From Candidatus Thorarchaeota archaeon (GTDB lineage: Archaea > Asgardarchaeota > Thorarchaeia > Thorarchaeales > Thorarchaeaceae), in assembly GCA_018238205.1 (NCBI GenBank), contig JABCTV010000003.1, forward strand, positions 323 through 64,322: a DNA stretch of 64,000 bases, in the 5' to 3' direction. A program made the translations under genes and the position numbers. How positions within the stretch are numbered: position 1 is the stretch's first letter; the number at the start of each line of letters is the position of its first letter. Below are positions 536 through 62,758 of this stretch, in pieces. The notes beneath the pieces were generated by a model. The model was not told the origin of the DNA and made no database searches. It saw nothing but the letters and a program-made list of their open reading frames with translations.

Positions 536-3274
536 TTGTACAACTTGAGAGATATCGAAGAACTTTCAGATGAAGAATGTAAACTTGAAACCAATGACCT
601 CAAGGAACATTCACTAACCACTGAAGAGCGAGATGATATCATTCGCAAATACAATGCTGATTTTCTTGGCGAAAGTAGTAAAGATACAAGAGAAATACAA
701 GAAATCAAAGAGCACGAGGTCAAATTCTGGGGACCACAGATTTTGGGTACCCCTGTTGATTCTGAGGAGGAAGTTATTACAATTCTGCAGGACCTCATTC
801 CAGGCATCTTCAAGCATCAGAGGTTTGACAACATAAGACATCAGATTTCCATGCATATGAGGACCACCCATGAATTCGGTCATCGAAATAGAGTGACTTA
901 CGGGGAGATTGCAGATTTCGCCAAACAGAATGATTATCCTTCTTCCACAATGGAAGGTTGGGTGCTTCAAGGAGTACAGCCCAATTCATATCGCATTATC
1001 AATGAGAATGCTCTGACAAAAGAAAAAGCAGAAATTTTGGTGTCTGAGATACGGGAAAAACTTCAGGGACTCGACACTCAGGCACGTTTGGATAAAGGCC
1101 TAGACACGTCTCATCATGAAATGAGAACGAAGACCTTGCCATACTTCAACAAAGACTATGAGAATGCTTGTGGTTTCTATAGATTTCTTGATGAACTAGT
1201 AGATGGCGGTGTGCTTAGTGATATTGCTAAACGAGTAGGGATTGATCGACTGGACGCACGTCGGTATATAGAGGAAAAGAGCATCCCACGAGTAATACGC
1301 AAGGTCCTGAACCAGTCGTTAGATGAGGTTGAAACCATCGAAAAGCGACAACTCATCAAAGACGAGGTTCAGTATGAGCAACTCCTCTGTAGGCATCCCC
1401 ACTTCCTCGATATGGAAGGATTTAGTGATATGGACCGCCATATGCGTGGGTATCTACACCTGAAGGAGATGCAGCAGTCTGATACAATACCCGATATCCC
1501 TCAAGAAGAACTGGCAGAGATGCTGAATATCTCGGGAGATCGATTGAACCTCTACCTGTCAGGTAAGTCTGCTCCCAAGCTACAGTCTACATTGTTGCTG
1601 CATGAGGATTTGAGGCTCATATACGAGGGAAAGCTTCCCCCTCTTGCCTTTGAGAGCAGGGTAGAACCTGAATTGGTCTTCAGAGAGTTACATCAGTACA
1701 AGGATTTGGAAACCCCAGATATTGATACTCTTGCATCATCTATCAGGACTATCTACGAGAAGACCGATATCTCATCCAATGTACGATGGCTCGATCTCCA
1801 TAGATATGCTCCTACTGGACAGGAGTGGTTCAAAGGAGTCGCCAATTTTTGTGAGAATAACCGTGCTGAGATAGAACACGCATTGAATCAGCAATTAGGA
1901 TTCGATAAGCACAGTCCACAACGGTTACGTCTGGGTGTTATCTCATCTAGAGTCTACCTAAGACTTGAGAATATCCGAGAAACTGATTGGATGCAGCTCT
2001 ACAATGACGAGATGTTCCACTTCCAAGATCAGGAAACAGTAGATGTACTTCTCTCTATGGCAAAGGAAAGGCTTGACATCAAGGGAGAGATATCCCTCAG
2101 TCGTCTTGTTCATCAAGTTGCTGATTATGATAGGACTGTGACTAGTCGTGGAATGAACTCTGACCTACATTCCCAAGCATCTTATCTTAAGGGGTCCACG
2201 TTGTCATTGCTACTCGATTCGTGCGATTTGACCATTCAGGACATACAAGACGAAATCTTTGCAATTGGTAGGTTCGATAGACGTCTCATACGTAATCCCG
2301 AATTTTCTGATGATGCCTTGGAGATTGACAAGGCTTTCGCAAGGCTGTTTGGTGCTGGGTTATCAGATGGGCATATTGATCAGTTTCGGGTCTTCTGTTA
2401 TTGTGAGGCGGATGTTGACCGTATCAGGATATTCAAGGAACATGTAGAGTTCTTCGGGGGTGTTGATTATACAGAAACAGTTGATGAGAAAGGCACTCAT
2501 GATCTCAGATATTCAAGTGTATTAGGTAGGATGCTTGAAAATCGTGGTTTTACAGTGGGCGACAAGACGGTGCAGAACAGAGGAATCCCTGATTTCATCC
2601 TGAATGGACCGATCGAGGTACAGATAGAGTATCTGAAACAGTTGTGGCCTGAGGATGGAGAATTCGTATACAATGATGGATTTCACAAGTATTTCAGATG
2701 GACAAGAGCAGTAGCATTTGTTGACCCTGAGAAAGATATGAAATATAATATTGACCGTGCTTTCGCACAAGAGATTGTATCACTTATTCAGAAATATGGT
2801 ACTTATACTGAGAAGAGCTCATTCCCAAACCGAGAGTCATATCCCCGATATATTTTGACTAGCGCTGATTTATCAGGATTCGCAAAATGTAAGGATACAA
2901 TGGTATCAGAACCAACAAGTTGGCTATATTCGTTTATCGAATCAAACAAACCTCTATTGATGAGGCATGAACAAGCTCTACTAGATAGCTTTGGTGTTGA
3001 TACTAGAGATTCCTTCGATGATATTACATATTATGTTGGAACGGGTAGAGTTTCTGTACTATTCCGTGCAGCCACTAGAACTCTTGACGATGCTATGCTA
3101 GTGGCAATTATTGCTCCTCCTGATGATAAGCGAAAGAGGATGAAAGTGGTGGAATGGGTTCTGTCGAATTTAACTTTGTACCAACGAGTTCGCAATGATG
3201 TATTGGCAAATGGATATCAGATATCGCTCAAAGAGATTGAGAATCCTAGTTACAACTATCTAGATAGGGAATAA
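536..3274 (+). CDS. large HTH-repeat protein with C-terminal double-motif LAGLIDADG homing-endonuclease-like domain
   Basis: Uninterrupted 912-codon ORF with a TTG start in the track; the true start is uncertain. LFGAGLSDG (nt 2345-2371) and LKQLWPEDG (nt 2633-2659) both fit LxGxxxxDG or LxxxxxxDG and lie 96 aa apart, as in single-chain LAGLIDADG enzymes. The N-terminal part has three HTH-like segments: YGEIADFAKQNDYPSSTMEGW, LSDIAKRVGIDRLDARRYIEE and QEELAEMLNISGDRLNLYLSG. Confidence 0.6.
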   Translation: MYNLRDIEELSDEECKLETNDLKEHSLTTEERDDIIRKYNADFLGESSKDTREIQEIKEHEVKFWGPQILGTPVDSEEEVITILQDLIPGIFKHQRFDNIRHQISMHMRTTHEFGHRNRVTYGEIADFAKQNDYPSSTMEGWVLQGVQPNSYRIINENALTKEKAEILVSEIREKLQGLDTQARLDKGLDTSHHEMRTKTLPYFNKDYENACGFYRFLDELVDGGVLSDIAKRVGIDRLDARRYIEEKSIPRVIRKVLNQSLDEVETIEKRQLIKDEVQYEQLLCRHPHFLDMEGFSDMDRHMRGYLHLKEMQQSDTIPDIPQEELAEMLNISGDRLNLYLSGKSAPKLQSTLLLHEDLRLIYEGKLPPLAFESRVEPELVFRELHQYKDLETPDIDTLASSIRTIYEKTDISSNVRWLDLHRYAPTGQEWFKGVANFCENNRAEIEHALNQQLGFDKHSPQRLRLGVISSRVYLRLENIRETDWMQLYNDEMFHFQDQETVDVLLSMAKERLDIKGEISLSRLVHQVADYDRTVTSRGMNSDLHSQASYLKGSTLSLLLDSCDLTIQDIQDEIFAIGRFDRRLIRNPEFSDDALEIDKAFARLFGAGLSDGHIDQFRVFCYCEADVDRIRIFKEHVEFFGGVDYTETVDEKGTHDLRYSSVLGRMLENRGFTVGDKTVQNRGIPDFILNGPIEVQIEYLKQLWPEDGEFVYNDGFHKYFRWTRAVAFVDPEKDMKYNIDRAFAQEIVSLIQKYGTYTEKSSFPNRESYPRYILTSADLSGFAKCKDTMVSEPTSWLYSFIESNKPLLMRHEQALLDSFGVDTRDSFDDITYYVGTGRVSVLFRAATRTLDDAMLVAIIAPPDDKRKRMKVVEWVLSNLTLYQRVRNDVLANGYQISLKEIENPSYNYLDRE

Positions 3275-4889: not shown

Positions 4890-5585
4890 ATGCAAGTAGA
4901 CATAGGTACAGAATTTATTATTTTATCTGGAATCATGACGATTATACTATCCCTAGCACTGAGTACGTTTTTGGGCTGGAAATGGTATAAACAGAAAGTA
5001 CGACTTATGACCGACCTTCCATTGGTCTTTGCAATAACTGGAATATTTCAAGTACTGAATATGACGATATTGACATTATCTCACATCGGCGTGTTAGAGC
5101 CCACAATGGAACTGTTTCGACTTCGTTCCATGGTGATCGGTGGTGCAATAGTACCAATCTTAGGTACAATCCTTCAGATCTGGGCACCATCTCATCAGAA
5201 GTATCACAAAAGGATTGTAATTCTTCTCACTCTGTACTGGTTCTCAATAGCGCTTCTTGGAACATCTGAAACAATTATCATGATATTGACCATTCCTATA
5301 CTGCTTATCATCAGTATCGTGATGATGATTACATTCATCGTAACCTGGAAAACTGGAAGATTGAAAGAAATTCGAAGCGAACTCATGATAGTGTCCGTTA
5401 TCTTCATGGTGGCAAGTCAAATCTTGAGAGTTCCTTTCATGTCAACTCCGCTGTTCTATGTCCCCGATTTATTACTAGGAGTTTCAATGATTTTGATTGC
5501 ACTAGGAATAGCTAATCCATGGTACTCTAGAGAGAAGAAAGTTCGTCAGGAAGAACCACCACAAATGGCTCCAATTACAGAATGA
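4890..5585 (+). CDS. hypothetical polytopic membrane protein
   Basis: Starts 4 nt after the CPBP gene on the same strand. About 6-7 hydrophobic helices. No recognisable motif. Confidence 0.5.
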   Translation: MQVDIGTEFIILSGIMTIILSLALSTFLGWKWYKQKVRLMTDLPLVFAITGIFQVLNMTILTLSHIGVLEPTMELFRLRSMVIGGAIVPILGTILQIWAPSHQKYHKRIVILLTLYWFSIALLGTSETIIMILTIPILLIISIVMMITFIVTWKTGRLKEIRSELMIVSVIFMVASQILRVPFMSTPLFYVPDLLLGVSMILIALGIANPWYSREKKVRQEEPPQMAPITE

Positions 5586-5662
5586 CATTCAATCAATCAT
5601 TCACAAAAGTAGAAAGAGGGATCTGAACTTGACGTTTTGATCCCTCTCGAATGTTGTACAGA

Positions 5663-7141
5663 TTATGCTTTTCTTTTCACGAAGAAAACACCAACAAGGA
5701 TGATTACGACTGCACCTCCACCAATCATCAAAAGATCCATAGGAATTTCCCCACCAACTCCAGTTCCGCTTGTTGTTCCTCCAGTTTCAGGTGGAACTGC
5801 ATCCGGGTCTGCAAGAGGATACGGATCTTCATTCCCTGCTCCACCATCTATAGTGTATGGGACATCAACAATCTGATCCGCGTCTGCATCAGGTGACACC
5901 CAGTCATCATAGTAATTGTAGATGTATGTGTTGTTTTCACCCTCATCATAGACTTGTGCTGCAACACCGTTATTGATGAACACATTTCGAGTGATTTCCA
6001 TACATTCAGTATTTACTGAGGTCTTCAAACCATAATTAGTAGAATCTTCAATATGATTGAATCTGAGTGTTGAATTTTCTCCTGAGGCTACTGAGATTCC
6101 AACACCATCAGTACCAACTACTGAATTGTTGTGGATTAGATCAAAACTAGAATCCTTCAGAAACATACCATCCTCTTCTACATTGACGAGTGAATTATTG
6201 TATAGTTCAATATCATAGGACTCCACAACGAAGACTCCATATCCTGATACGTTCGAGAGTTCATTATGCATAATCTCAACAGACGAAGCGTTTCCCAGAT
6301 GAATACCTAGACCAGTCACCTCGTCCACATAATTATCCGTAATCTGACAATTTGTTGCAGTTATTGGCACCTGAATTCCTGTACCCTCACAGTTTGTGAC
6401 AGTGTTTTCAGAGATTTCGGAGTCAACTGCAGTCAATATACGAATCCCTGATCCAGTGTTTCTGGTTATAGTATTGTCAGAGATCAAACATCCATTGATA
6501 TAACCCGCACATTCGATTCCGTGGAGAAGATTGTCTTCAATGATATTGTTAGTTATAGTAACATCATCGATGTCAATCAACCACAATCCCCGATACCTGT
6601 TGTGAATTAGATTGTTTGCTACATATCCATTTGCGGAATTAGAAATCTCCACTCCACACCAGACGGTTGAGTCACCAGGACCATCCACCTCATTATCAGT
6701 GAAAGTCCAGTATAGGTCTATGTTCCGAATCTCAACTGAATGTTGTACATCGTAGAAGTAATAGCCAGTTATCTGGTATGGGTTTCCTTCAGTTCCATCC
6801 CCTGGCCAGACCTCTGCGTCTGCCTGAGCTATCATTTCCGCATTTCCATCAAGCAAGATTGCATCATGTGGTATGTATGCTGTGGTAAAACTATCATGAC
6901 CCTCCAGTCTGCTCTCTTGTAGAACACCTGCAGTCATCAACGGATTACCAATAGCAAACACCATTAGACCAATCAGCAAGCATAGTGTGATCTTTTCTTT
7001 CGTGATTATTCTCATAGAATCACCCTTCTGGGTATTTTCTCCTATTGTGGTGGTAACAATCACATTACTTAGAATAAAAAGAATCGAGATTGGAGCAACG
7101 CCAAATATCTGGAGATGATAATTGATAGATGTCATTAGCAC
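5663..7141 (-). CDS. secreted right-handed parallel beta-helix (PbH1/NosD-like) repeat protein with C-terminal membrane anchor
   Basis: Repeated ~22-aa units of the type NNxIxxNxxxGIxL (NNLIHNRYRGLWL, NNIIEDNLLHGIE, DNTITRNTGSGIRI, ENTVTNCEGTGIQV and others). The likely true start is MRIITKEKITLCLLIG at nt 7015. The C-terminus is LLMIGGGAVVIILVGVFFVKRKA. Confidence 0.65.
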   Translation of the reverse strand: MLMTSINYHLQIFGVAPISILFILSNVIVTTTIGENTQKGDSMRIITKEKITLCLLIGLMVFAIGNPLMTAGVLQESRLEGHDSFTTAYIPHDAILLDGNAEMIAQADAEVWPGDGTEGNPYQITGYYFYDVQHSVEIRNIDLYWTFTDNEVDGPGDSTVWCGVEISNSANGYVANNLIHNRYRGLWLIDIDDVTITNNIIEDNLLHGIECAGYINGCLISDNTITRNTGSGIRILTAVDSEISENTVTNCEGTGIQVPITATNCQITDNYVDEVTGLGIHLGNASSVEIMHNELSNVSGYGVFVVESYDIELYNNSLVNVEEDGMFLKDSSFDLIHNNSVVGTDGVGISVASGENSTLRFNHIEDSTNYGLKTSVNTECMEITRNVFINNGVAAQVYDEGENNTYIYNYYDDWVSPDADADQIVDVPYTIDGGAGNEDPYPLADPDAVPPETGGTTSGTGVGGEIPMDLLMIGGGAVVIILVGVFFVKRKA

Positions 7142-8550: not shown

Positions 8551-8879
8551 CCTCCATGGACTAGGGGTACGATTGTAAGAATATCTCCATCCTTCAATGT
8601 TGTTTTGAGACCACCTGTAACTCCGATATCAACCTCATTACAGAGAATCATAGAATCACGGTCAATTTCTGCAGGTTTCTTCCATATACTTTGTAGATAG
8701 GAGTTCTGCTCAATTATCTTAACAAACAAATTATTGAGTATGAAACCGTTTTCTATCTCCATCTCCAGAGTCCCGTTCTCTATTTCTCGTGCAATTGGTC
8801 CCCGAAATCTGACTGTGATTTTCATAGTACGTACCGCTCGTTTTGGTCGAGGGAATGCTTGATAAATTACTTGCTTCAT
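8547..8879 (-). CDS. MoaD/ThiS-type ubiquitin-like small protein ending in Gly-Gly (SAMP-like)
   Basis: The C-terminus is DGDILTIVPLVHGG followed by a stop. The probable true start is MKITVRFRGP at nt 8825, giving about 92 aa. Confidence 0.65.
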   Translation of the reverse strand: MKQVIYQAFPRPKRAVRTMKITVRFRGPIAREIENGTLEMEIENGFILNNLFVKIIEQNSYLQSIWKKPAEIDRDSMILCNEVDIGVTGGLKTTLKDGDILTIVPLVHGG

Positions 8880-10439
8880 GCTGGAGTGTTAACCTCTATA
8901 TGGGAAGACCGTAGGTTGAACATTATGGCTGTGGATTGTGAAACTGAAACAACTCCAGAGGTGGTTTCAAGCAGGTTCGCTCGCATTTTTGGTCTAGAAG
9001 ACCCAACACCTGACGCCGTGCGCTATGTCAAAATAATCTCAGTCTTACTACCAGCTTTTGCACTCAGCTTCCAAATCAGCACTACTTTCTGGATGATCCA
9101 TATGGCTGAAACACTCGGAGGCGGTGACTACTTTGCAGGTCTAACGCTTGTTGGGTTCCTAGTGGTTATCCAGATGGCAGTTCAGACGGCATTAGATTAT
9201 CCAACCGGTGCACTTGGGGACGCAATAGGACAACGTTATGTCATTGCTTCAGCTCTCCTCTGCTACGCGATAGCTTTCTATCTATCTTCACAGATTATTA
9301 TCGGTACCCCATTCTATATCTACGTGGCCATTTACGCCCTCTTTGGGTTGGGTTCGTCGCAGGAGAGTGGCGCCTTCAGTGCGTGGTTTGACAATAATTA
9401 CAAGGTTGCCATGCCTCATGACAAGGACCGAAAGCAGTACGGTGTGTTTCAAGGTCGACTGGGTATGGTTTGGCAGGTGTCTTCGACACTTGTGCTGATT
9501 CCTGGGTCTTGGCTTGCTTGGTTATACAGCCGTCAATTTGTCTTCGGGCTTCAAGCTATATTTGCAATCTTCCTTGCCATAGTAGTTCTGAAACTTGTAA
9601 AGGACTTGCCTGGAGTTAGAGAGGCGAAAGATGAGAAACCCACCCTCTCAGAATACACGACTCTCTTGAAAGATGGATTCAAGTTTCTATGGTCAAGTCG
9701 GTTTGTAACTCTGCTTATTCTCGGTGAAGTAGTGATGTGGAGTACTTCTCCTGTTTGGTGGAATTTACTTTTGTTCCCACTTTACTTTAGTTTCCTTGTC
9801 ACAATGGTTGCAGTTTCAGCCTTCCGAACGCTTGTGTTTCTCCCTCAAGCGGTAGCAAATGAAAGAAGTGGTGTTCTAGCTAAGAGATTCGAACCAAAGA
9901 AATGGATTCCACGTTTCAGGTTGCTCCAGTTCATGGGGGTGATTTTCTACTTGATATTAGCAGCAATTGTACACTTCTTCCCAGGAATTGAACCAGGAAC
10001 TGACCCCGCAAGTATTGAATTCTTGAGCATAATGATCCCCTTCACAAATCTTCCTTTGATTGAGATACCTACTGTGACTCTAGTGCCAGTATTTCTCATG
10101 TTTCTGGCATTCATTTCCTTCAACCTGTTTGGGGGAATTGCAGGGATTCTCACTCAACGAGTCATGCTGGATGTCATTCCAAACCGGATTCGAAACTCAA
10201 TGTATTCATTGCAACCCACTTTGATTATGTTGGTTTCAATGCCTCTCATCGCATTCTTCGGGTGGTTTATCCCCTTCACTGGAGGATTCACATGGACTTT
10301 CATCATCTGTGCTTTCATTTCTCTCTTGGGTACATTGATGATTTGGCAGGCATTCAAACATCCTATACCTAAAGCAGAAGCAGTTGTTAAAGCGGATGAA
10401 ACCGAAACTGAGGATGTCCAAGAGATGGATATAACTTAG
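8859..10439 (+). CDS. MFS-type membrane transporter
   Basis: About 12-14 hydrophobic helices with an MFS-like loop (DYPTGALGDAIGQRY). The likely start is MAVDCETE at nt 8925. Substrate unknown. Confidence 0.55.
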   Translation: MINYLLHAGVLTSIWEDRRLNIMAVDCETETTPEVVSSRFARIFGLEDPTPDAVRYVKIISVLLPAFALSFQISTTFWMIHMAETLGGGDYFAGLTLVGFLVVIQMAVQTALDYPTGALGDAIGQRYVIASALLCYAIAFYLSSQIIIGTPFYIYVAIYALFGLGSSQESGAFSAWFDNNYKVAMPHDKDRKQYGVFQGRLGMVWQVSSTLVLIPGSWLAWLYSRQFVFGLQAIFAIFLAIVVLKLVKDLPGVREAKDEKPTLSEYTTLLKDGFKFLWSSRFVTLLILGEVVMWSTSPVWWNLLLFPLYFSFLVTMVAVSAFRTLVFLPQAVANERSGVLAKRFEPKKWIPRFRLLQFMGVIFYLILAAIVHFFPGIEPGTDPASIEFLSIMIPFTNLPLIEIPTVTLVPVFLMFLAFISFNLFGGIAGILTQRVMLDVIPNRIRNSMYSLQPTLIMLVSMPLIAFFGWFIPFTGGFTWTFIICAFISLLGTLMIWQAFKHPIPKAEAVVKADETETEDVQEMDIT

Positions 10440-44121: not shown

Positions 44122-45073
44122 GCGTAGTTATTGGTCTTGACTGAAGAATTACAAGGCCGCCATCGGGACGAATACACCATTCGATATCCTGAGGGGATTC
44201 CATGCCACTTTCGACTTTCATTCCAACATCCGCAATATCGAACAGCGTTTGCTCATCCAGAGAAAATTCAGATTGTTTGTTCGTTGGAGTTTTTGATATG
44301 GTTGGTTGATCTCTCGCAGGCAGAGAGGTGAATTCTTTCCCACCTAAAACACGTTGAATCACACTCAGTGGATTCTTAGTCAGAATGTATGTATCAGGCA
44401 CTATTTTCCCTGAAACTAAAGAATCACCTAGGCCCCACGTTGCATTGATCAAAATCTCTTCAGTATTATTATTAACAACATTAGCGGTAAACATCACGCC
44501 CGAGATATCTGCTGGAATCATTTCCTGAATTATAACAGCCATCTTGACCTGTTTCATGGGAATTTTTTTGGTCTTTAGATAGATGACCGCACTTTCCGAA
44601 AACGCCGATTGCCATACCCTCTTTACCGATTCAAGGATGTCCCTTTGATTCTCCACGCAGAGAAAACTCTCCGCCTGTCCAGCAAACGAGATATCGATAC
44701 GATCCTCGATTGTTGCTGAAGAACGTACAGCGAAACCAATCTCACTGTTCTTAGTTATCTCTTGGAGGTGTTTGAACTTTTCAAAAATTTCAGTTTCCAG
44801 AATCTCAGGTAAGCTGTAGTTTCCTATTATTTCCTGTAAACTAGCAGAAATCTCAATTATCTTTTCAAAATCATCAGAATCGTCTATTATTTTTAGCAAG
44901 CTAACAAGATCTTGATTACTCTCTACCATTTGGACAAATGCATTACTGGAAATGGAAAGACTTCTTGGAACACGAAATCCCAAATGTGCCAATTTCGCAA
45001 GATTTGCTGCCTTTCCTCCATGAATTTCAACATCTTTTGGTTGAATGTCTTCAAGAGAGTGAACCATTTGCAA
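44081..45073 (-). CDS. PEP/pyruvate-binding (PPDK N-terminal ATP-grasp) domain protein
   Basis: The segments GGKAANLAKLAHLGFRVPRSLSIS, AVRSSATIED, AGQAESF and VIIQEMI are the nucleotide-binding domain signatures of PEP synthase, PPDK and RPH. Confidence 0.75.
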   Translation of the reverse strand: MQMVHSLEDIQPKDVEIHGGKAANLAKLAHLGFRVPRSLSISSNAFVQMVESNQDLVSLLKIIDDSDDFEKIIEISASLQEIIGNYSLPEILETEIFEKFKHLQEITKNSEIGFAVRSSATIEDRIDISFAGQAESFLCVENQRDILESVKRVWQSAFSESAVIYLKTKKIPMKQVKMAVIIQEMIPADISGVMFTANVVNNNTEEILINATWGLGDSLVSGKIVPDTYILTKNPLSVIQRVLGGKEFTSLPARDQPTISKTPTNKQSEFSLDEQTLFDIADVGMKVESGMESPQDIEWCIRPDGGLVILQSRPITTLSVPSSHEVKSLE

Positions 45074-52542: not shown

Positions 52543-52664
52543 TGGTGCCGAGGACGAGATTCGAACTCGTGAACTCCTACAAGAGTGGATTTCTCATGGG
52601 AGTCAAGCCATCAGCTTGAAGGATCTTGAGTCCACCGCCGTTGACCGGGCTTGGCTACCTCGGC
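52543..52664 (-). tRNA. tRNA-Leu(CAA) with canonical 37/38 intron (~52591-52624), CCA encoded
   Basis: Hand-folded on the minus strand. Acceptor GCCGAGG/CCTCGGC. Anticodon arm GTGGA-CTCAAG[34-nt intron]A-TCCAC. Long variable arm. T arm ACGAG-TTCGAAT-CTCGT. Discriminator A followed by CCA. Confidence 0.85.
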
Positions 52665-56479: not shown

Positions 56480-56923
56480 TTATTCTACAATTACTTCGTT
56501 TTCGTGCTCAGTAGAACATTTCATACTGTTCGTTACAAGACAGTACTTTCCTGCTAGTTCTAACGCTCGTTCAGCTTTTGGTACTAACTCTGCTGACTCT
56601 ACAGTAACCTTCGCTTTTAGAAGCAATTTAGTGAACTGGAATCCTTTCTCTACTCTTTCTAGGGTTCCATGACCATCGCATGAGAATGACTTGAACTCAA
56701 TTCGCATTTTCTTCGTGAAAGTAACGAACGTTGTCATAAGACAGGTTGTTGCTGCAGCCACAAAGAGATCCTCTGGAGAGATTATTCCCTCTGGACCATC
56801 GAACTCCGGTGGTGTTGCTACCTGAATCTTGGGTTTTCCTTCAACATTGAGGTCTCCGACCTTACCATGTGTCCAATCCAATTTTACAAGATATTCATGT
56901 GAATCGTCACTCATCACTATCAC
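56480..56923 (-). CDS. OsmC/Ohr family protein
   Basis: PEDLFVAAATTCLMTTF and a distal CLVTNSMKC region (two conserved Cys), typical of the OsmC fold. Paralogous to the next gene. Confidence 0.75.
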   Translation of the reverse strand: MIVMSDDSHEYLVKLDWTHGKVGDLNVEGKPKIQVATPPEFDGPEGIISPEDLFVAAATTCLMTTFVTFTKKMRIEFKSFSCDGHGTLERVEKGFQFTKLLLKAKVTVESAELVPKAERALELAGKYCLVTNSMKCSTEHENEVIVE

Positions 56924-56964
56924 TAAATCCGGTTTGATATCATCTCTGGGAAAAGGGTTTGGGT

Positions 56965-57378
56965 CTACTCTACAATGACTTTTGCGTTATGTGTGATTGG
57001 GCACTTCATACTATTTCCAACAAAACAATATTTAGCTGCAAGATCTAATGCTCGATTAATCTTCTTGCGTAAGTCTTCCGACTCAACTACTACCTCGGCT
57101 TTCATCTCAATCTTTGTAATCTCAAAACTGCGACCAACCTTTTCCAAAACTCCCACTGAATCGCAATCAAATGATTTGAAGTCAATATGCATCTTTTCTG
57201 TAAAATTCACAAATCCATTCATGTAACATGTTATTGCCGAGGCTACAAAGAGATCTTCCGGTGAATGATAACTTGCTTCACCAGTTTTGATTACAGCTTT
57301 GCCTTCTACTGCAAGACTACCACTCTTTCCACCAGTCCAAACAAGATTAACGGGAAATAATCTAGACTCATCACTCAT
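56965..57378 (-). CDS. OsmC/Ohr family protein (tandem paralogue)
   Basis: PEDLFVASAITCYMNGF and CFVGNSMKC. Clear similarity to 56480..56923 along its whole length. Confidence 0.75.
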   Translation of the reverse strand: MSDESRLFPVNLVWTGGKSGSLAVEGKAVIKTGEASYHSPEDLFVASAITCYMNGFVNFTEKMHIDFKSFDCDSVGVLEKVGRSFEITKIEMKAEVVVESEDLRKKINRALDLAAKYCFVGNSMKCPITHNAKVIVE

Positions 57379-57433: not shown

Positions 57434-58207
57434 CTATTTCTTCTCTGTCTTAAACACAGCAAAGAAGGGTATACGCCGCTCCCTGTCAAAGAATGGGTTG
57501 TCATCCAAAGGTCGAGGCTCCCTGAAATCTACAAGATTAAATCCAGTAGTAACAAGAGAATTCAGATAGGTAGCTAAGGTCCTATGGAAGAAGCTTATGG
57601 GTGCTGGGAACTTCTCCCCTTTTCTTGTTCTCCAATATCTCTCGAATTCTTCTTCATCAAAATAATTGTCTACTTTGAAGAACAATCCCTCTCTTCTATT
57701 CGTATCAGGGTCCTTTTCTCCCATTTCCCATGCACCAGGTCCATAGAAATTGAATGCTGGGTGTACAATCGAAAAAACAAGATGACCCCCCGTTTTTAGA
57801 ACACGATTGTATTCCTTGAGGGCAACAACAAGATCTGGTATATTCAATAACACAAGATTAGACAATACGATATCAAACGTTTCATTCGGAACGGATTCAA
57901 TATGACAGACATCACCAACTCTATAGTCTACTTCAAGACTTTCGCTGTCTGTTATCATCTTAGAAGTTTCAATCAAACTTGGAGAAAGATCAATTGCTGT
58001 TACATCTGCTCCTTTCTTAGTGTAATATCTAGCTAGGTATCCTTCACCACACCCAGCATCAAGCAGACTCTTTCCTTTGACATCTCCAAGTAGCTCTTCA
58101 ACACACGGATTGAGGATGCTCTCATGATGTGGAGTCCCTGTTCCTGCAATGAGATCCGCAAATGCTTCAGCATTGTCTTCCCATTGCTTCTGAATCCTGT
58201 CTACCAT
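57434..58207 (-). CDS. class I SAM-dependent methyltransferase
   Basis: Motif I LLDAGCGEGYLARY, followed by AIDLS and FDIVLSNLVL. Confidence 0.8.
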   Translation of the reverse strand: MVDRIQKQWEDNAEAFADLIAGTGTPHHESILNPCVEELLGDVKGKSLLDAGCGEGYLARYYTKKGADVTAIDLSPSLIETSKMITDSESLEVDYRVGDVCHIESVPNETFDIVLSNLVLLNIPDLVVALKEYNRVLKTGGHLVFSIVHPAFNFYGPGAWEMGEKDPDTNRREGLFFKVDNYFDEEEFERYWRTRKGEKFPAPISFFHRTLATYLNSLVTTGFNLVDFREPRPLDDNPFFDRERRIPFFAVFKTEKK

Positions 58208-58252
58208 GTTTTAGAGAAATGTATAGGGACTTCTGAATCTTTCGACTACATT

Positions 58253-58654
58253 CTAGATTTTATCCCATACTTTGCGAACTCGTTTTCCGGTTTCTTCAAT
58301 GACTGAGGCCATTGCATCCTCGGAAGCAAGCCCTAACTCAGAAGCTACTCTCATGATTGAAGTGTGAGATACCATGACTTTACCTTCATCTTCGTATACT
58401 ACAAAGCTACAAGGGAAGAGCGTTCCAACATCCTTTGAAGCATCTAATCCCATTTTTGCAAGTTCTGGTGCGCACGCAAGGACAGTCGTATATCGTGGAT
58501 AGTCAATTCCAAGTTTCTGTTTGAAGATATCTTCTATTCCCTTAGTAAGCAGGAGACCAAATCCTTCACTAGCAAGCGCTTCTTCAGCTCTCTTCACTGT
58601 TTCATCAAATGTATGGGATGATTCCTTACGTAAAACGTCGACCATGCTATACAA
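58253..58654 (-). CDS. DUF302-like protein
   Basis: 133 aa. The pattern FGLLLTKGIEDIFKQKLGIDYPRYTTVLACAP resembles DUF302. Confidence 0.55.
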   Translation of the reverse strand: MYSMVDVLRKESSHTFDETVKRAEEALASEGFGLLLTKGIEDIFKQKLGIDYPRYTTVLACAPELAKMGLDASKDVGTLFPCSFVVYEDEGKVMVSHTSIMRVASELGLASEDAMASVIEETGKRVRKVWDKI

Positions 58655-58746
58655 TATAATTCACTATTGTTAAATTACTTTCCATTAGACCTGAAATCTC
58701 AACCAATCAAAATATGAGGTAGTTAGAAATTAGAAGATTATGGTGG

Positions 58747-59937
58747 TTGGTAGTGACCCCTGAAGACTCAATCTCAACGGAAGATGAAATCGAGCGGAAT
58801 CCAGCACATGTTTTTGGAGCTGCGTCATTTCTTAATGATACCGGATCGGACATGATTGCACCCATCTGGCCGACCTTTCTTACTACTCAGCTTGGATTGA
58901 GTCCGGGTCAAGTACAGATGGTTGATGGATTAGCACTGATGATTGCCTCACTCTCTAAGCTAGGTGCAGGGTATGCTTCTGATAGAACGGGAAAGAGAAA
59001 GGCCTTCATTACATTAGGATATGCAATGTCATCTCTTGCGCGGATTGGATTTGTTCTAGCAACCTTAGGATACCAGTTCTTTCAGATAGTGCTCTGGAAA
59101 TCTATGGACCGATTAGGTAAGATACGTGGACCACCCCGTGATGCTATTGTTGCAGGTCATTCAACTGAGAAGAACCGGGGACGTGCATTTGGTGTACTGA
59201 GAGCACTCGATACAGCAGGTGCAGTTCTTGGAACGATAATCACATTCCTACTTTTCCAATACATTGGATATAATGGAATTATCCTGTTAGCGGTCATACC
59301 AAGCCTTGGTTCAGTAATCATAGTTTCCGTTTTTATCAAAGAAAAGCGTGGAAAAGATATTTTCAAGGGCGTCAATTTTCGAGGTCTTGATAATAATCTG
59401 AAAGTGTTTCTGGCGGCCTCTGTATTATTGTCACTTGCTACATTCAGCTATTCACTATTGATCCTCTTTTCCGCAGATTATGGATATTCAGTCCCGCAGC
59501 AGACGCTTCTCTATCTCTTGTTTACAGTTGTGTATGCAGTGACCGCTTACCCCTTTGGAAGACTATCTGATAGAGTGGGTAGAAAACCAATTTTGGTCAC
59601 AGCTTTTCTTTTTCTTATATTGACCTCACTTTGGGCTTACTTCTTTGTCTTTGATATGTTTACAATTATTCCTCTCTTCATCTTCTTTGGATTGATGAAT
59701 GGAGCATTAGATCCAGTTCAGACCAGCTTTGTGTCTGATTTGGTAGAAGAAGAGCGGCGGGCAAGTATCATTGGAGCTTTTCAGATGGCGGTTGGGATCT
59801 CTGCATTTCCAGCTGGAATTATTATAGGTTATCTATGGGACTCAATCAATCCCCTTGCAGCATTTCAATATTCGATTGTTCTCACATTCTTTGCATTGGT
59901 ACTTCTACTACTAATAAGAACAAAACGCATAGAATGA
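58747..59937 (+). CDS. MFS transporter
   Basis: 12 TM helices. MFS loop motifs GYASDRTGKRK and GRLSDRVGRKP. Its last ~63 nt are duplicated at 61618-61683. Confidence 0.75.
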   Translation: MVVTPEDSISTEDEIERNPAHVFGAASFLNDTGSDMIAPIWPTFLTTQLGLSPGQVQMVDGLALMIASLSKLGAGYASDRTGKRKAFITLGYAMSSLARIGFVLATLGYQFFQIVLWKSMDRLGKIRGPPRDAIVAGHSTEKNRGRAFGVLRALDTAGAVLGTIITFLLFQYIGYNGIILLAVIPSLGSVIIVSVFIKEKRGKDIFKGVNFRGLDNNLKVFLAASVLLSLATFSYSLLILFSADYGYSVPQQTLLYLLFTVVYAVTAYPFGRLSDRVGRKPILVTAFLFLILTSLWAYFFVFDMFTIIPLFIFFGLMNGALDPVQTSFVSDLVEEERRASIIGAFQMAVGISAFPAGIIIGYLWDSINPLAAFQYSIVLTFFALVLLLLIRTKRIE

Positions 59938-59994
59938 AAATGGTGGACCGGGGGGGATTTGAACCCCCGACCTTCTGATTGCGAACCAGACAAT
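59875..59994. repeat. 120-nt direct repeat, copy A (MFS gene 3' end plus the 3' 54 nt of tRNA-Ala)
   Basis: Aligned by eye to 61618..61737. The tRNA-derived 54 nt are identical. The other 66 nt differ at 6 positions. Confidence 0.9.
59941..59994 (-). pseudogene. truncated tRNA-Ala(CGC) copy (positions 23-76 only)
   Basis: Identical to the 3' 54 nt of the intact gene at 61684..61760. Beyond 59994 the sequence diverges (TTCTTTGC versus CTACCGGG), so the 5' acceptor and D arm are missing. Confidence 0.85.
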
Positions 59995-60048
59995 TTCTTT
60001 GCTTTTGATATAGGATAAATATAGTCCATCAATGATCTAGTGGATGGC

Positions 60049-60741
60049 CTAATCAAATGGTGTTGCACTTAGCTGGACAGCATATGGATAGACAAGTTTT
60101 GCACGAGCTATTACAGATTCTTTCTTTTTCGGCACTTCTGCATGATTATTGACACGGAAACAGGGAATAGCACTCTTCATACGCCATCGGCCACGAAGTT
60201 CCCACCCATTGATATCCTCTTCAATCATCATCCGGTATGGTTTTAGATCAATCCACACTTTCTCTGTCGGATCAGTGAACAACTCAAGGTCTTCAATAAG
60301 CAATCCATAGTAGGAAGTTGAGGGAGAAAGACCGCTGCCCGTTGGATATCTTTCTGGAAATAGTTCCAGCCCTCGTACATGCGGTTTCAAATATCGCCAA
60401 GCGCCTTTCTTAGGACCTAGGTCAAACTTCTGACGTAGAGTTTTGTTTTTGCATCCTTCACACCATGCATCATATGCCTTGCTGATTGGAGAAAACAAAA
60501 CATCAATACTAGATGGTTTTTCAGACATACTAGAAATATGGCGCTCAAGTAACATACGTACTGAATCAGGTGTGTAAGCACGTTCATAACCAAAGGGATA
60601 GAAAGCGTCGGGATTATCTACCTTTTCTGCTTCATATTGCGCCTTTATCCTTGGTAGAATGCTTGTTATTTTTTCACCATAGTATCCAACTTTCATTACA
60701 ATGATTATATCAGAAAATGATTCCATTATTATCACTCCCAT
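60049..60741 (-). CDS. hypothetical protein (islet cargo B)
   Basis: 230-aa ORF, 62 nt downstream of cargo A on the same strand. No motif recognised. The start is possibly MESFSD. Confidence 0.5.
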   Translation of the reverse strand: MGVIIMESFSDIIIVMKVGYYGEKITSILPRIKAQYEAEKVDNPDAFYPFGYERAYTPDSVRMLLERHISSMSEKPSSIDVLFSPISKAYDAWCEGCKNKTLRQKFDLGPKKGAWRYLKPHVRGLELFPERYPTGSGLSPSTSYYGLLIEDLELFTDPTEKVWIDLKPYRMMIEEDINGWELRGRWRMKSAIPCFRVNNHAEVPKKKESVIARAKLVYPYAVQLSATPFD

Positions 60742-60803
60742 CCATTAGTTGAAAGGACAACGCGATAGAAAAGTATTTGGCATAACTTTATTTATATCGT
60801 GAG

Positions 60804-61346
60804 TCAATCAGCACAATCGTTGAATAGAGATAGCATTTTACGTTGGTTCAGTGAAAGTATGGTTCGATGGTTTCGCTTCTCCGGATAAATTTCTGCTTGA
60901 GTCCAAAGCTCTTTTCGTAGACTCATTTCTCGTTTTATCTTACGGTCATTTACAGTGAAGTCTTTCTTGAGCTCTTTATAATCAAACAAGTATACATTGT
61001 GGATACACCAAGGAAGTAATTTTCCAGACTGATCTCTTGATCCTGCAAGTACGAGATAGATATCAGCTGGTGCATCATGGTTTATATCAAGCACTTTGGG
61101 AATTGTATACATTTTGACATTGACAGTCAATCCCCCTAAGGCACCCCACTTGAACTTGCCATCTATACCCGTATTGGTCCTTGACGTTTCCAACGTAATC
61201 CCGAATACTCTCGCTGCAATATACTCACCAACATTCCCAATCAAAGCAGGTGTGTCTATCTTCTTTGATATTTTTCTTGCAACATCGTTTCGCATCTTGA
61301 CAAGTTTGGCAAGACTACGTAACTCTTTCATTGAGTCACTGCTCAT
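60804..61346 (-). CDS. hypothetical protein with PD-(D/E)xK nuclease-like motif layout (islet cargo A)
   Basis: The segments GEYIAARVFGITLE, TGIDGKF, LTVNVKMY and DIYLVLAG occur in the order expected of a restriction-endonuclease-like core. The call is tentative. Confidence 0.45.
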   Translation of the reverse strand: MSSDSMKELRSLAKLVKMRNDVARKISKKIDTPALIGNVGEYIAARVFGITLETSRTNTGIDGKFKWGALGGLTVNVKMYTIPKVLDINHDAPADIYLVLAGSRDQSGKLLPWCIHNVYLFDYKELKKDFTVNDRKIKREMSLRKELWTQAEIYPEKRNHRTILSLNQRKMLSLFNDCAD

Positions 61347-61617
61347 TAGATTGATCTCATTATAGTCAATGTACTTGTTGTAATAAATTAACCCCAGCTT
61401 GAACCCAAGGAATTTTACTGTGTATTATACCTAGGGTGAATGGAAAAGTAGATTCGTGGCTTAGTTTGTAAAATACCCTCAATACACAAAACTTTCAATC
61501 GTTCTCCTTTGACAAGAGTCTATTGCATTATAAGGGGAGAGAAATTTTCGGCCCCGAGTATCTTCTGTAAAGAAAAACAGATTTAATATTGTATTTTCAA
61601 GGAAGCCCTGTACTCCC

Positions 61618-61737
61618 ATTGTTCTCACATTCTTTGTATTGATACTTCTACTACAAATAAGAACAAAAAGCACAGAATGAAGATGGTGGACCGGGGGGGA
61701 TTTGAACCCCCGACCTTCTGATTGCGAACCAGACAAT
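61618..61737. repeat. 120-nt direct repeat, copy B
   Basis: See copy A. This copy is contiguous with the 5' 23 nt of tRNA-Ala. Confidence 0.9.
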
Positions 61738-61760
61738 CTACCGGGCTAATCTACCGGCCC
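61684..61760 (-). tRNA. tRNA-Ala(CGC), intron-less, CCA encoded
   Basis: Hand-folded. Acceptor GGGCCGG/CCGGTCC with the G3-U70 identity pair. Anticodon arm TCTGG-TTCGCAA-TCAGA, giving anticodon CGC. T arm GGGGG-TTCAAAT-CCCCC. Discriminator A followed by CCA. Confidence 0.9.
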
Positions 61761-61814: not shown

Positions 61815-62108
61815 TTAGATATCAATTCCAAAGGCTTCAGAGAATCTCTCTATTCTAATAAACTCCCGTAGAAATTCTCGACCCTTCTCCGTGAGATAGT
61901 ATGTTCGGTTGTTACTGTTAGGGTCTTCTTCTAAAATGAGTTCTTTGTTCACAAGCTCGTCAATATACTGTTTCAATCTATCGTGGGATAAATTAGCGGC
62001 ATAGAGTATTTTTGTTGGTCCCGCACCTTCTTCTCCTTCACTCTGAATGGCACGCATCATATCAGCTAAGATGCGCATCTTTGAGCGATAGGCGCGTTTT
62101 CTACTCAT
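61815..62108 (-). CDS. small winged-helix DNA-binding protein
   Basis: 97 aa. The segment PTKILYAANLSHDRLKQYIDELVNKELILEE...YYLTEKGREFL is a wHTH pattern. It overlaps the upstream membrane-protein gene by 1 nt. Confidence 0.55.
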   Translation of the reverse strand: MSRKRAYRSKMRILADMMRAIQSEGEEGAGPTKILYAANLSHDRLKQYIDELVNKELILEEDPNSNNRTYYLTEKGREFLREFIRIERFSEAFGIDI

Positions 62109-62758
62109 TAGTCTCGTCCAGCCTTGATTAGCATGACTAAAAGTGACAAGAAACCCAATAGTTGAGCACCTTGACTCATTAGATAGAGTCCAGGAGCTGC
62201 AGCTACGGGAGCCGTAGCTACTTGAGCCATCCAGATATGACTCAATAGGAGTAAAATGAACCCAACCAAGACATAGCGGGCAAATTTACTCCCTGTCGAC
62301 AGGTAGTTCAATATTGATTGAAGAACTACTACAATAAGTACCATTATTGCGATGATTTCGAGAGAAGGATCAACAAGGAACGTTGCCATTAATAGCAAAC
62401 TTATTCCTGACCCATTCGACCTATTCTGATTTTCTTGATTATCTAATGTGTGCGAAGGTCTTATTGATATGAAAAAGAGAATGTATGCCAATATTCTGGA
62501 TACACCATAGGCAATCGTGACTATTGATATAATCAGATGACTGCCTTCGCCACCAAACTGGATGAAGAAATACCACGTACCAATTACTCTTCCAAACATA
62601 CCAGCTGAAAGCACGAGAAATCCCGTTGAGAGATCTGACAGTTTCTTTTGACCGGTAAGACGGTACGCCTTTGTTGCATAGTATGTTACAATCAAAGCGA
62701 TTATTCCACTAATCGTTTCGAAGAGTAAGTCCAATCTGATTAAACCTATTACTTGCAT
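62108..62758 (-). CDS. hypothetical polytopic membrane protein
   Basis: 216 aa with ~7 hydrophobic helices. Co-transcribed with the wHTH gene. Confidence 0.5.
   Translation of the reverse strand: MQVIGLIRLDLLFETISGIIALIVTYYATKAYRLTGQKKLSDLSTGFLVLSAGMFGRVIGTWYFFIQFGGEGSHLIISIVTIAYGVSRILAYILFFISIRPSHTLDNQENQNRSNGSGISLLLMATFLVDPSLEIIAIMVLIVVVLQSILNYLSTGSKFARYVLVGFILLLLSHIWMAQVATAPVAAAPGLYLMSQGAQLLGFLSLLVMLIKAGRD

Follow-up and report, generated by a model that had tools for sequence, protein, structure and literature searches.

A stretch of 64,000 nucleotides from the genome of a Candidatus Thorarchaeota archaeon (GenBank assembly GCA_018238205.1, contig JABCTV010000003.1, positions 323 to 64,322), to which we refer in its entirety as the window, carries a small insertion at a gene for tRNA-Ala(CGC). 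The origin and function of this insertion, or islet, are the subject of the present analysis. The islet contains two genes on the minus strand, cargo A (60804..61346, 180 residues) and cargo B (60049..60741, 230 residues as listed), which are separated by a spacer of 62 nt (60742..60803) and preceded by a leader of 271 nt (61347..61617) on the same strand that holds no credible open reading frame (ORF). Two direct repeats on the minus strand, R1 (61618..61737) and R2 (59875..59994), bracket the pair. R1 reaches into the intact tRNA gene (61684..61760, minus strand) and R2 into the 3' end of a host gene for an MFS transporter (58747..59937, plus strand). Both ORFs, the quoted segments of A, the gap between the genes and the non-coding stretch in front of them had been described in an original prediction, made without database searches, and are present as described. 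The prediction also took the pair to be the only cargo of a tRNA-Ala insertion, which the repeats and the empty site in related genomes bear out, and read it as a candidate two-gene defence or toxin module, which is discussed below.

The tRNA gene (ARAGORN; Rfam tRNA, 62.4 bits) is the integration target. The repeats are 120 nt long, 95% identical and in direct orientation. Each comprises the final 54 nt of the tRNA (anticodon stem through CCA end) and the 66 nt downstream of it. Within the tRNA part, a core of 33 nt is found in two exact copies in the window, where none is expected by chance. In R1, the attL-like copy, which was delimited by repeat search, five-way alignment and blastn against the related contig L105, the tRNA part is the 3' half of the intact gene (61684-61737) and the 66 nt are a copy of the 3' end of the MFS gene, which comes next after the tRNA where the site is empty. 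In R2, the attR-like copy (repeat search and five-way alignment), a displaced tRNA-Ala 3' half (59941-59994), which is non-functional as a tRNA, adjoins the genuine 3' end of the MFS gene (59875-59940), so that R2 is contiguous with this gene as at the empty site of L105. The last ~20 codons of the MFS gene fall within R2 and are duplicated in R1. Two further ORFs on the minus strand, 59865-60068 and 61479-61736 (67 and 85 residues), read through the tRNA-derived repeat; we rejected them as genes, as their common peptide, SGSQSEGRGFKSPPVHH, is a translation artefact of the duplicated tRNA.

The state of the locus before insertion is preserved in four related contigs (L105-L108), which share with the window the gene order ValRS-OsmC-OsmC-methyltransferase-DUF302-MFS. 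The MFS gene (Pfam MFS_1 on its homologues) is a core gene of Thorarchaeota with hundreds of orthologues, many of them named Candidatus Thorarchaeota. In all four contigs, its stop codon is followed by 3 nt and then by the intact, convergent tRNA-Ala(CGC), and neither A nor B is found at this site. In blastn comparisons, window positions 58001..59994 align without a break to the empty site of L105, an alignment that takes in the MFS gene and the 3' half of the tRNA, and positions 61618..61760 align to the same MFS 3' end and to the whole tRNA. Given the 120-nt repeat and the empty site in the relatives, the window carries an insertion of 1,743 bp, made up of 1,623 unique bp and the 120-nt target duplication. 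Such an insertion with such a duplication is the footprint of a circular molecule that recombined into the site.

Between the repeats, there is space for A and B and for no third gene. The islet holds no integrase or recombinase, and neither of its ORFs matches a recombinase family in Pfam, PHROGs, PADLOC or NCBIfam. The obvious options for its mobility are an integrase supplied in trans by a helper element, or homologous recombination across the 120-nt homology. The tRNA-derived attachment (att) sequence gave no match in IMG/VR. The leader, for which Rfam gave no match and the RNA folding score indicated no significant structure (z = -1.0), presumably holds the promoter of A, and it could be what is left of an attP arm. 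The promoter and terminator scan employed bacterial-type models and is uninformative for an archaeon.

The islet is also present in a second lineage of Thorarchaeota (L012, L013 and L014; a 213-kb contig), and the comparison with this lineage dates its spread. Window positions 61760..59932 are 96.9% identical to L012, as against 80.8% for the adjoining core genes. The homology is bounded by the 5' end of the tRNA on one side and stops where the displaced tRNA half ends on the other. Within these limits, identity is 98.3% in the genes and 87-95% in the non-coding parts, with 94.8% for the leader and 87%, the lowest value of any segment in the islet, for the spacer between A and B; the tRNA-Ala(CGC) genes of the two lineages are identical (100%). 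The rate of synonymous substitution (dS) is 0.05 for A and B, compared to 1.6-2.0 for two neighbouring genes, DUF302 and the methyltransferase. An islet that is 97% identical beside a core that is 81% identical, with this difference in dS, must have been transferred recently. The direction of the transfer can also be read from the sequence, because no MFS gene was called at the L012 locus, where a DsrE-family gene (8841-9200) takes the place of the window's MFS gene (58747-59937), whereas a 66-nt fragment resembling the MFS 3' end persists beside the tRNA. The islet, including this fragment, therefore came from a genome like that of the window. It is mobile, or at least was recently transferred, as a unit of 1.7 kb. 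The ratio of non-synonymous to synonymous substitution (dN/dS) lies between 0.13 and 0.30, and both A and B are functional genes.

The far side of tRNA-Ala(CGC) varies among all Thorarchaeota lineages that we examined. In the window, it is occupied by genes for an HTH_45 winged-helix protein and a DUF7521 membrane protein (61815-62758), in L012 and L013 by a TnpB-like (Cas12f1-like_TNB) gene and a 76-residue ORF (5054-6960), and in L108 by a DDE_Tnp_1 transposase gene (2296-3144). Several contigs break at or near the tRNA: the start of L014 coincides with the repeat, and the ends of L106 and L107 lie 227 nt beyond the tRNA. The locus resembles a mobile-element hotspot.

Cargo A was predicted from its sequence to have a PD-(D/E)xK restriction-endonuclease-like core, and structure modelling confirmed this fold. 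The AlphaFold2 model, built from an alignment of 11 sequences, has a pLDDT of 86.5 and a pTM of 0.84, and shows a helix (36-48) and four strands (50-52, 63-65, 74-80 and 96-101) within the alpha-beta-beta-beta-alpha-beta arrangement of PD-(D/E)xK cores. The prediction was based on the segments GEYIAARVFG (40-49), IDGKF (61-65), LTVNVKMY (73-80) and DIYLVL (95-100); in the model, the alpha-beta-beta-beta core puts E41, D62 and N76-x-K78, the candidate active site, at the canonical positions. An alignment of 77 family members picks out the same residues, with E41 invariant and D62, N76 and K78 each conserved in at least 90% of the sequences. In a Foldseek search of the PDB, the top 18 matches were all to the N-terminal domain of Eco15I (Eco15I-N), NhoI or PvuII, with the best E-values for Eco15I-N (3.4e-5) and PvuII (3.5e-4) and a TMq of 0.5-0.55 for NhoI. 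The basic C-terminal tail noted earlier is also present: the last 58 residues contain 24% Lys and Arg and have an isoelectric point of 9.7. The gene is under purifying selection, with a dN/dS of 0.13.

In family searches, the only match of A was to Pfam DUF6998, to which residues 34-105 of A align at profile positions 24-87 with an E-value of 7.6e-5 and a score of 23.1 bits, below the gathering threshold of 27 bits. PHROGs and NCBIfam gave no match, and neither A nor B matched PADLOC-DB 2.0 at E <= 10. A first search for relatives of A returned 10 clusters, but a pattern scan of metagenome contigs revealed a much larger family, with at least 392 relatives confirmed among the 600 matching stretches listed. 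These are ~40-47% identical to A and come from contigs with GC contents of 30-69%. Of 77 relatives, 75 match DUF6998 at E <= 0.01, but the best E-value in the family is only 1e-7; judged by these scores, the A family is a divergent sister group of DUF6998 rather than a clear member of it. A literature search found no mention of DUF6998.

To describe the genomic context of the family, we surveyed the genes that immediately flank A relatives in ~85 loci. No partner dominates: 92 of 135 neighbours are singletons. Among the recurrent ones are a helicase-nuclease of 1600 residues (DUF4011/AAA_11/AAA_12/MTES_1575; PADLOC Hhe and PDC-S37), DUF2779/Cas4-like proteins, TIR proteins, DruA, Mrr, mREase_IV and MADS proteins, whereas no DNA methyltransferase family is found among the 25 neighbour families listed. 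About one in ten of the immediate neighbours matches a defence-protein model, a figure that constitutes an upper bound, as the PADLOC models for helicases and kinases are generic (matches at 1e-5). The original prediction had expected a defence context, and to this extent it holds, since relatives of A do at times stand beside defence genes; the proportion is small, and an enrichment of the family near such genes is suggestive. Taken together, A is a solitary gene for a nuclease-like protein, scattered by horizontal transfer and tolerated with neither a methyltransferase nor an antidote.

In one clade of the A family, whose members are 74-86% identical to each other, the gene lies 25-43 nt upstream of the 1600-residue helicase-nuclease (DUF4011/AAA_11/AAA_12/MTES_1575/DUF3320, with matches to PADLOC Hhe and PDC-S37). 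This arrangement was seen in L001 (6587-11389), L052 (2790-7592), L046 (4096-5670) and L056, and in L001 it is part of an island with Type I restriction-modification (R-M) genes and an OLD/AAA_15 gene. It may be a real two-gene arrangement in this clade; as a pairing of the whole family, it was rejected, because it is confined to the clade.

Cargo B matches nothing we could recognize, in agreement with the original prediction. Pfam, PHROG, PADLOC and NCBIfam gave no match, and profiles built from 15 and from 21 sequences found nothing significant among PDB chains. The AlphaFold2 model is of low confidence (pLDDT 63, pTM 0.71), and the best Foldseek matches (E = 1.2 in the PDB, E = 0.5 in BFVD) are consequently no proof of a new fold. 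A very weak cluster of matches to YTH (m6A-reader) domains, with probabilities of 0.03-0.07 over ~76 aligned residues, was also obtained. Relatives are few: 14 clusters in a collection of 5.8 billion, and 18 representatives at E <= 0.001 among 1.84 billion proteins, one of which is a WD40 false positive. Where named, they are mostly Thorarchaeota, and both matches in the genome collection are metagenome-assembled genomes of this group. All homologues begin at the position that corresponds to an ATG at 60726 (MESFSD...), so B probably starts there, which would reduce it to 225 residues and widen the gap to A to 77 nt. With a dN/dS of 0.14-0.30 over dS values of up to 1.0, B is a real gene under purifying selection.

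The protein is relatively rich in Tyr (6.2%), Trp (2.2%) and Arg (6.2%), and its invariant positions in the 21-sequence alignment are F83, W93, W115, P129, Y144 and P219; the same alignment contains no conserved acidic, His, Ser or Cys residue. As the conserved residues are aromatic or proline and not catalytic, B is more likely to be a binding or structural protein than an enzyme. We considered and rejected a role as an integrase or replication protein, since B does not show a conserved catalytic pattern of Tyr, Arg and His, and since other B loci contain neither tRNAs nor att-like repeats. One relative, P0026 (421 residues), carries the B-family domain at 189-418, fused to an N-terminal domain of 188 residues for which neither Pfam nor the PDB gave a match; the tail of the same extension is found in P0027.

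The neighbours of B differ from locus to locus. In L005, a 393-residue protein overlaps the start of B, and type III CRISPR RAMPs, PemK and ParE are encoded nearby. In L007 (Thorarchaeota GCA_016840225.1, JAEOSS010000363.1; 2517-3080), a 187-residue ORF upstream overlaps the B homologue by 4 nt and contains the sequence GWIDIVI...VAIEVKY, which resembles a D...ExK nuclease motif. L008 has a divergent 180-residue protein, L009 a protein with a FokI cleavage domain in the vicinity, and L011 a secreted protein of 173 residues. The neighbours of 187, 393, 180 and 173 residues gave no match in Pfam or the PDB, and the idea that they are hidden homologues of A was rejected by phmmer. A conserved adjacency of B and an MFS gene, which L007 seemed to offer as well, was likewise rejected, because the MFS gene of L007 gave no tblastn match to that of the window.

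These surveys bear directly on the two-gene module of the original prediction, which had named the failure of the pair to co-occur in other genomes as an argument against itself. Outside this islet, the two genes do not co-occur. B is present in none of the ~85 other A loci and A in none of the seven other B loci (phmmer of the neighbours; A-profile search for L103 and L104). A B-profile hmmsearch over all ORFs of 102 loci found B in its own loci and in the near-identical relatives of the window only. A and B stand together only in copies of this islet, 97-98% identical to each other, and a profile-profile comparison detected no relationship between the two (probability 0.2%). Moreover, the DNA similarity between the window and two other B loci (82% for L008, 75% for L009) is restricted to the B ORF: it begins 5 nt upstream of the annotated ATG and ends at, or at most 28 nt from, the stop codon. 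Their separate occurrence and the limitation of this similarity to the B ORF indicate that the islet is a chimera of two independently circulating genes, and A and B are probably not one two-gene defence or toxin module. The intervening spacer, which is 87% identical to that of L012 as compared to 98% for the genes, contains by eye an A/T-rich TATA-like element and a Shine-Dalgarno-like motif, GGGAGTGA, ahead of the ATG at 60726; these could serve as a promoter and a ribosome-binding site for B.

We thus arrive at an interpretation to which we assign a probability of roughly 0.6, namely that the islet is a chimeric mini-element with two independent cargoes and without an integrase, and that A is a stand-alone nuclease that spares its own host. 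According to this proposal, the islet entered the 3' half of tRNA-Ala(CGC) in the chromosome of a member of the Thorarchaeota by Campbell-type recombination; the insertion itself, the duplication and the recent exchange between lineages of this group are shown by the comparisons above. A would be a small PD-(D/E)xK endonuclease of the PvuII/BisI structural type with a predicted E...D...NxK active site. As A and its relatives have neither a methyltransferase nor a fixed partner, it most likely works alone, possibly as a homodimer by analogy with PvuII and NhoI. Host DNA might be spared either through a requirement of A for modified bases, such as is known from the BisI family and Type IV enzymes, or through a lack of its sites in the host, and the enzyme would then act as a stand-alone defence nuclease. 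B would bind something rather than catalyse a reaction, and would not be obligatorily linked to A.

Several observations weigh against this interpretation. The islet became integrated although it brings no recombinase of its own. The nuclease activity of A is predicted from its fold and its conserved residues, and the (D/E) position of its (D/E)xK motif is occupied by Asn76 in place of the canonical acidic residue, a substitution that is also seen in some inactive family members. The TM-scores to solved nucleases are moderate (0.4-0.55), and sequence and profile searches with A (11- and 77-sequence profiles) found no significant match among PDB chains. That A spares its host through dependence on modification is possible and is drawn from analogy, and ~90% of the neighbours in the A family are not defence genes. 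Lastly, the tight co-linear spacing of A and B and the conservation of both in two lineages would be compatible with a functional link between them at this locus.

An alternative that we regard as unlikely, though still to be taken seriously, is that a larger integrated provirus or plasmid, formerly with an integrase of its own, has decayed to a stump, the present islet, with A and B as leftovers that served, for instance, in superinfection exclusion or against the host. A repeat that takes in a tRNA 3' half (anticodon stem through CCA end) is the usual footprint of integrase-mediated insertion, and the islet has such att-like repeats but no recombinase. The locus attracts mobile elements in the relatives, as illustrated by TnpB in L012 and the DDE transposase in L108, and A relatives are found on three IMG/VR contigs. 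Against a stump speaks that a lineage only 81% identical has the islet in this short form too, and with the same ends, which implies that the short form itself has spread. A larger relative of the islet was not found; the att sequence and B are absent from IMG/VR, and GenBank phages and PLSDB plasmids contain neither A nor B.

Somewhat less probable is a true two-component system, in which B serves as the antitoxin or immunity protein to a toxic nuclease A, or in which B senses a signal and licenses A. The arrangement of the genes would suit such a system, as they are co-directional, 62-77 nt apart and retained in two lineages at 98% identity with a dN/dS of about 0.13. A comes without a methyltransferase, so something must keep it harmless, and in L005 and L007, B lies directly downstream of, and overlaps, a different gene. 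Set against this are the failure of A and B to co-occur elsewhere and the tolerance of very diverse genomes for A relatives on their own, which argues that no antidote is needed. Similarity to L008 and L009 ends at the B ORF, and the segment between the two genes is the least conserved of the islet. In addition, charged or catalytic residues are not conserved in B, and the protein resembles none of the known antitoxin, immunity or sensor families.

It is improbable that B is a new module for binding a ligand or a modified base in an aromatic pocket formed by the invariant W93, W115 and Y144, and that it pairs promiscuously with interchangeable nucleases, A in the islet and the 187-residue protein in L007, to form a modular, Asgard-specific system of modification-dependent restriction; the very weak cluster of YTH-domain matches is its sole structural hint.

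We consider it more improbable still that A is a selfish homing-type endonuclease, which would cut the empty tRNA-Ala/MFS junction and let the islet spread by recombinational repair. PD-(D/E)xK homing endonucleases exist, for example I-Ssp6803I, and homing would account for mobility without an integrase. It would also be in keeping with an islet that is far more conserved than its flanks and has its boundaries in conserved tRNA sequence, and with a family of solitary genes scattered over unrelated genomes. However, homing does not create a 120-nt target duplication, as Campbell-type insertion of a circle does. Furthermore, a tRNA is present in only 3 of the 33 other A loci scanned, and the closest structural relatives of A are restriction enzymes and not homing enzymes. 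Finally, A, B or both might have an ordinary housekeeping role, for example as a repair nuclease or in a structural function, and happen to be encoded beside a tRNA. This notion could appeal to the purifying selection on both genes and to the many metabolic genes next to A relatives, but is hardly credible in view of their absence from the same locus in closely syntenic Thorarchaeota, a dS in the insertion 30 to 40 times below that of core genes, a B family of just 18 representatives in 1.84 billion proteins and the lack of a match between either protein and a curated housekeeping family.

Three further features of the window are mentioned for completeness. Between the ValRS gene and the Methyltransf_11 gene, two OsmC-family paralogues of 147 and 137 residues lie in tandem on the minus strand (56480-57378), an arrangement that is kept in all related Thorarchaeota contigs. 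A 96-nt 'tRNA-Cys (aca)' called by ARAGORN at 44756-44851 (minus strand) was not confirmed by Rfam. Conversely, Rfam detected a 119-nt tRNA at 52546-52664 (minus strand; 44.6 bits) that ARAGORN missed and that is probably an intron-containing archaeal tRNA.

The A family is large, widespread and uncharacterized. It has the PvuII/BisI fold, as modelled for A, has no accompanying methyltransferase, and does not figure in current catalogues of defence systems. If it is indeed one of stand-alone and perhaps modification-dependent restriction enzymes, it would represent a new family of defence genes, and might also supply a new reagent with which to map DNA modification. The islet, in turn, is a clean and dated case of very recent gene flow between Thorarchaeota by way of a tiny, integrase-less element at a tRNA hotspot, and it bears on the question of how Asgard archaea gain genes of bacterial type. 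B adds to this a well-supported orphan that is largely limited to Asgard archaea.

Among characterized proteins, the BisI family (NhoI and Eco15I-N; PDB 8q5n, 8rpx, 8q5m and 8q5o) provides the best structural matches to A, with Foldseek E-values of 3e-5 to 6e-3 and a TMq of 0.45-0.55. BisI-family enzymes are modification-dependent, with 5-methylcytosine in GCNGC required; they have QVK or QIK as their third motif, a helix glutamate in the active site and a methyl-binding pocket with an (H/R)(V/I/T/M) motif plus Arg, and PvuII is their closest classical relative (PMC11347163). A resembles them as a small, single-domain, PvuII-like PD-(D/E)xK protein that is encoded without a methyltransferase. 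It also shares the amide at the first position of (D/E)xK, which is QVK or QIK in active BisI-family enzymes and NVK in A, and the glutamate of the core helix (Glu50 in NhoI, E41 in A). It differs in having Asn in place of Gln, in a long additional N-terminal helix (3-30) and a basic C-terminal extension, and in that no sequence similarity is detectable: profiles of 11 and 77 A sequences found no NhoI or Eco15I chain among PDB sequences at E <= 10. The A family is therefore separate from the BisI family, although both have the same fold.

PvuII itself (PDB 1pvu, 1pvi and 1f0o) is similar in fold and size (~155-180 residues; Foldseek E-values of 3.5e-4 to 6e-3), but it has a canonical D...ExK motif and is encoded next to a cognate methyltransferase and a C protein. 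Since the islet contains no cognate methyltransferase, we rejected the possibility that A belongs to a PvuII-like Type II R-M system; the nearest methyltransferase gene (57434-58207) is a core-genome gene of the Methyltransf_11/UbiE type that is also present at the loci with an empty site.

Like other tRNA-integrated islands of archaea, the islet occupies the 3' half of a tRNA gene, restores the intact tRNA, leaves a displaced partial copy, has an empty counterpart in relatives and carries accessory genes. Unlike them, it measures only 1.74 kb, has no integrase and extends its duplication 66 nt beyond the tRNA into a host gene. Small circularisable elements, including one of 2.5 kbp, have been described from Asgard genomes (PMC11529989). 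A and the islet belong to known kinds, the one a restriction-like nuclease and the other a tRNA islet.

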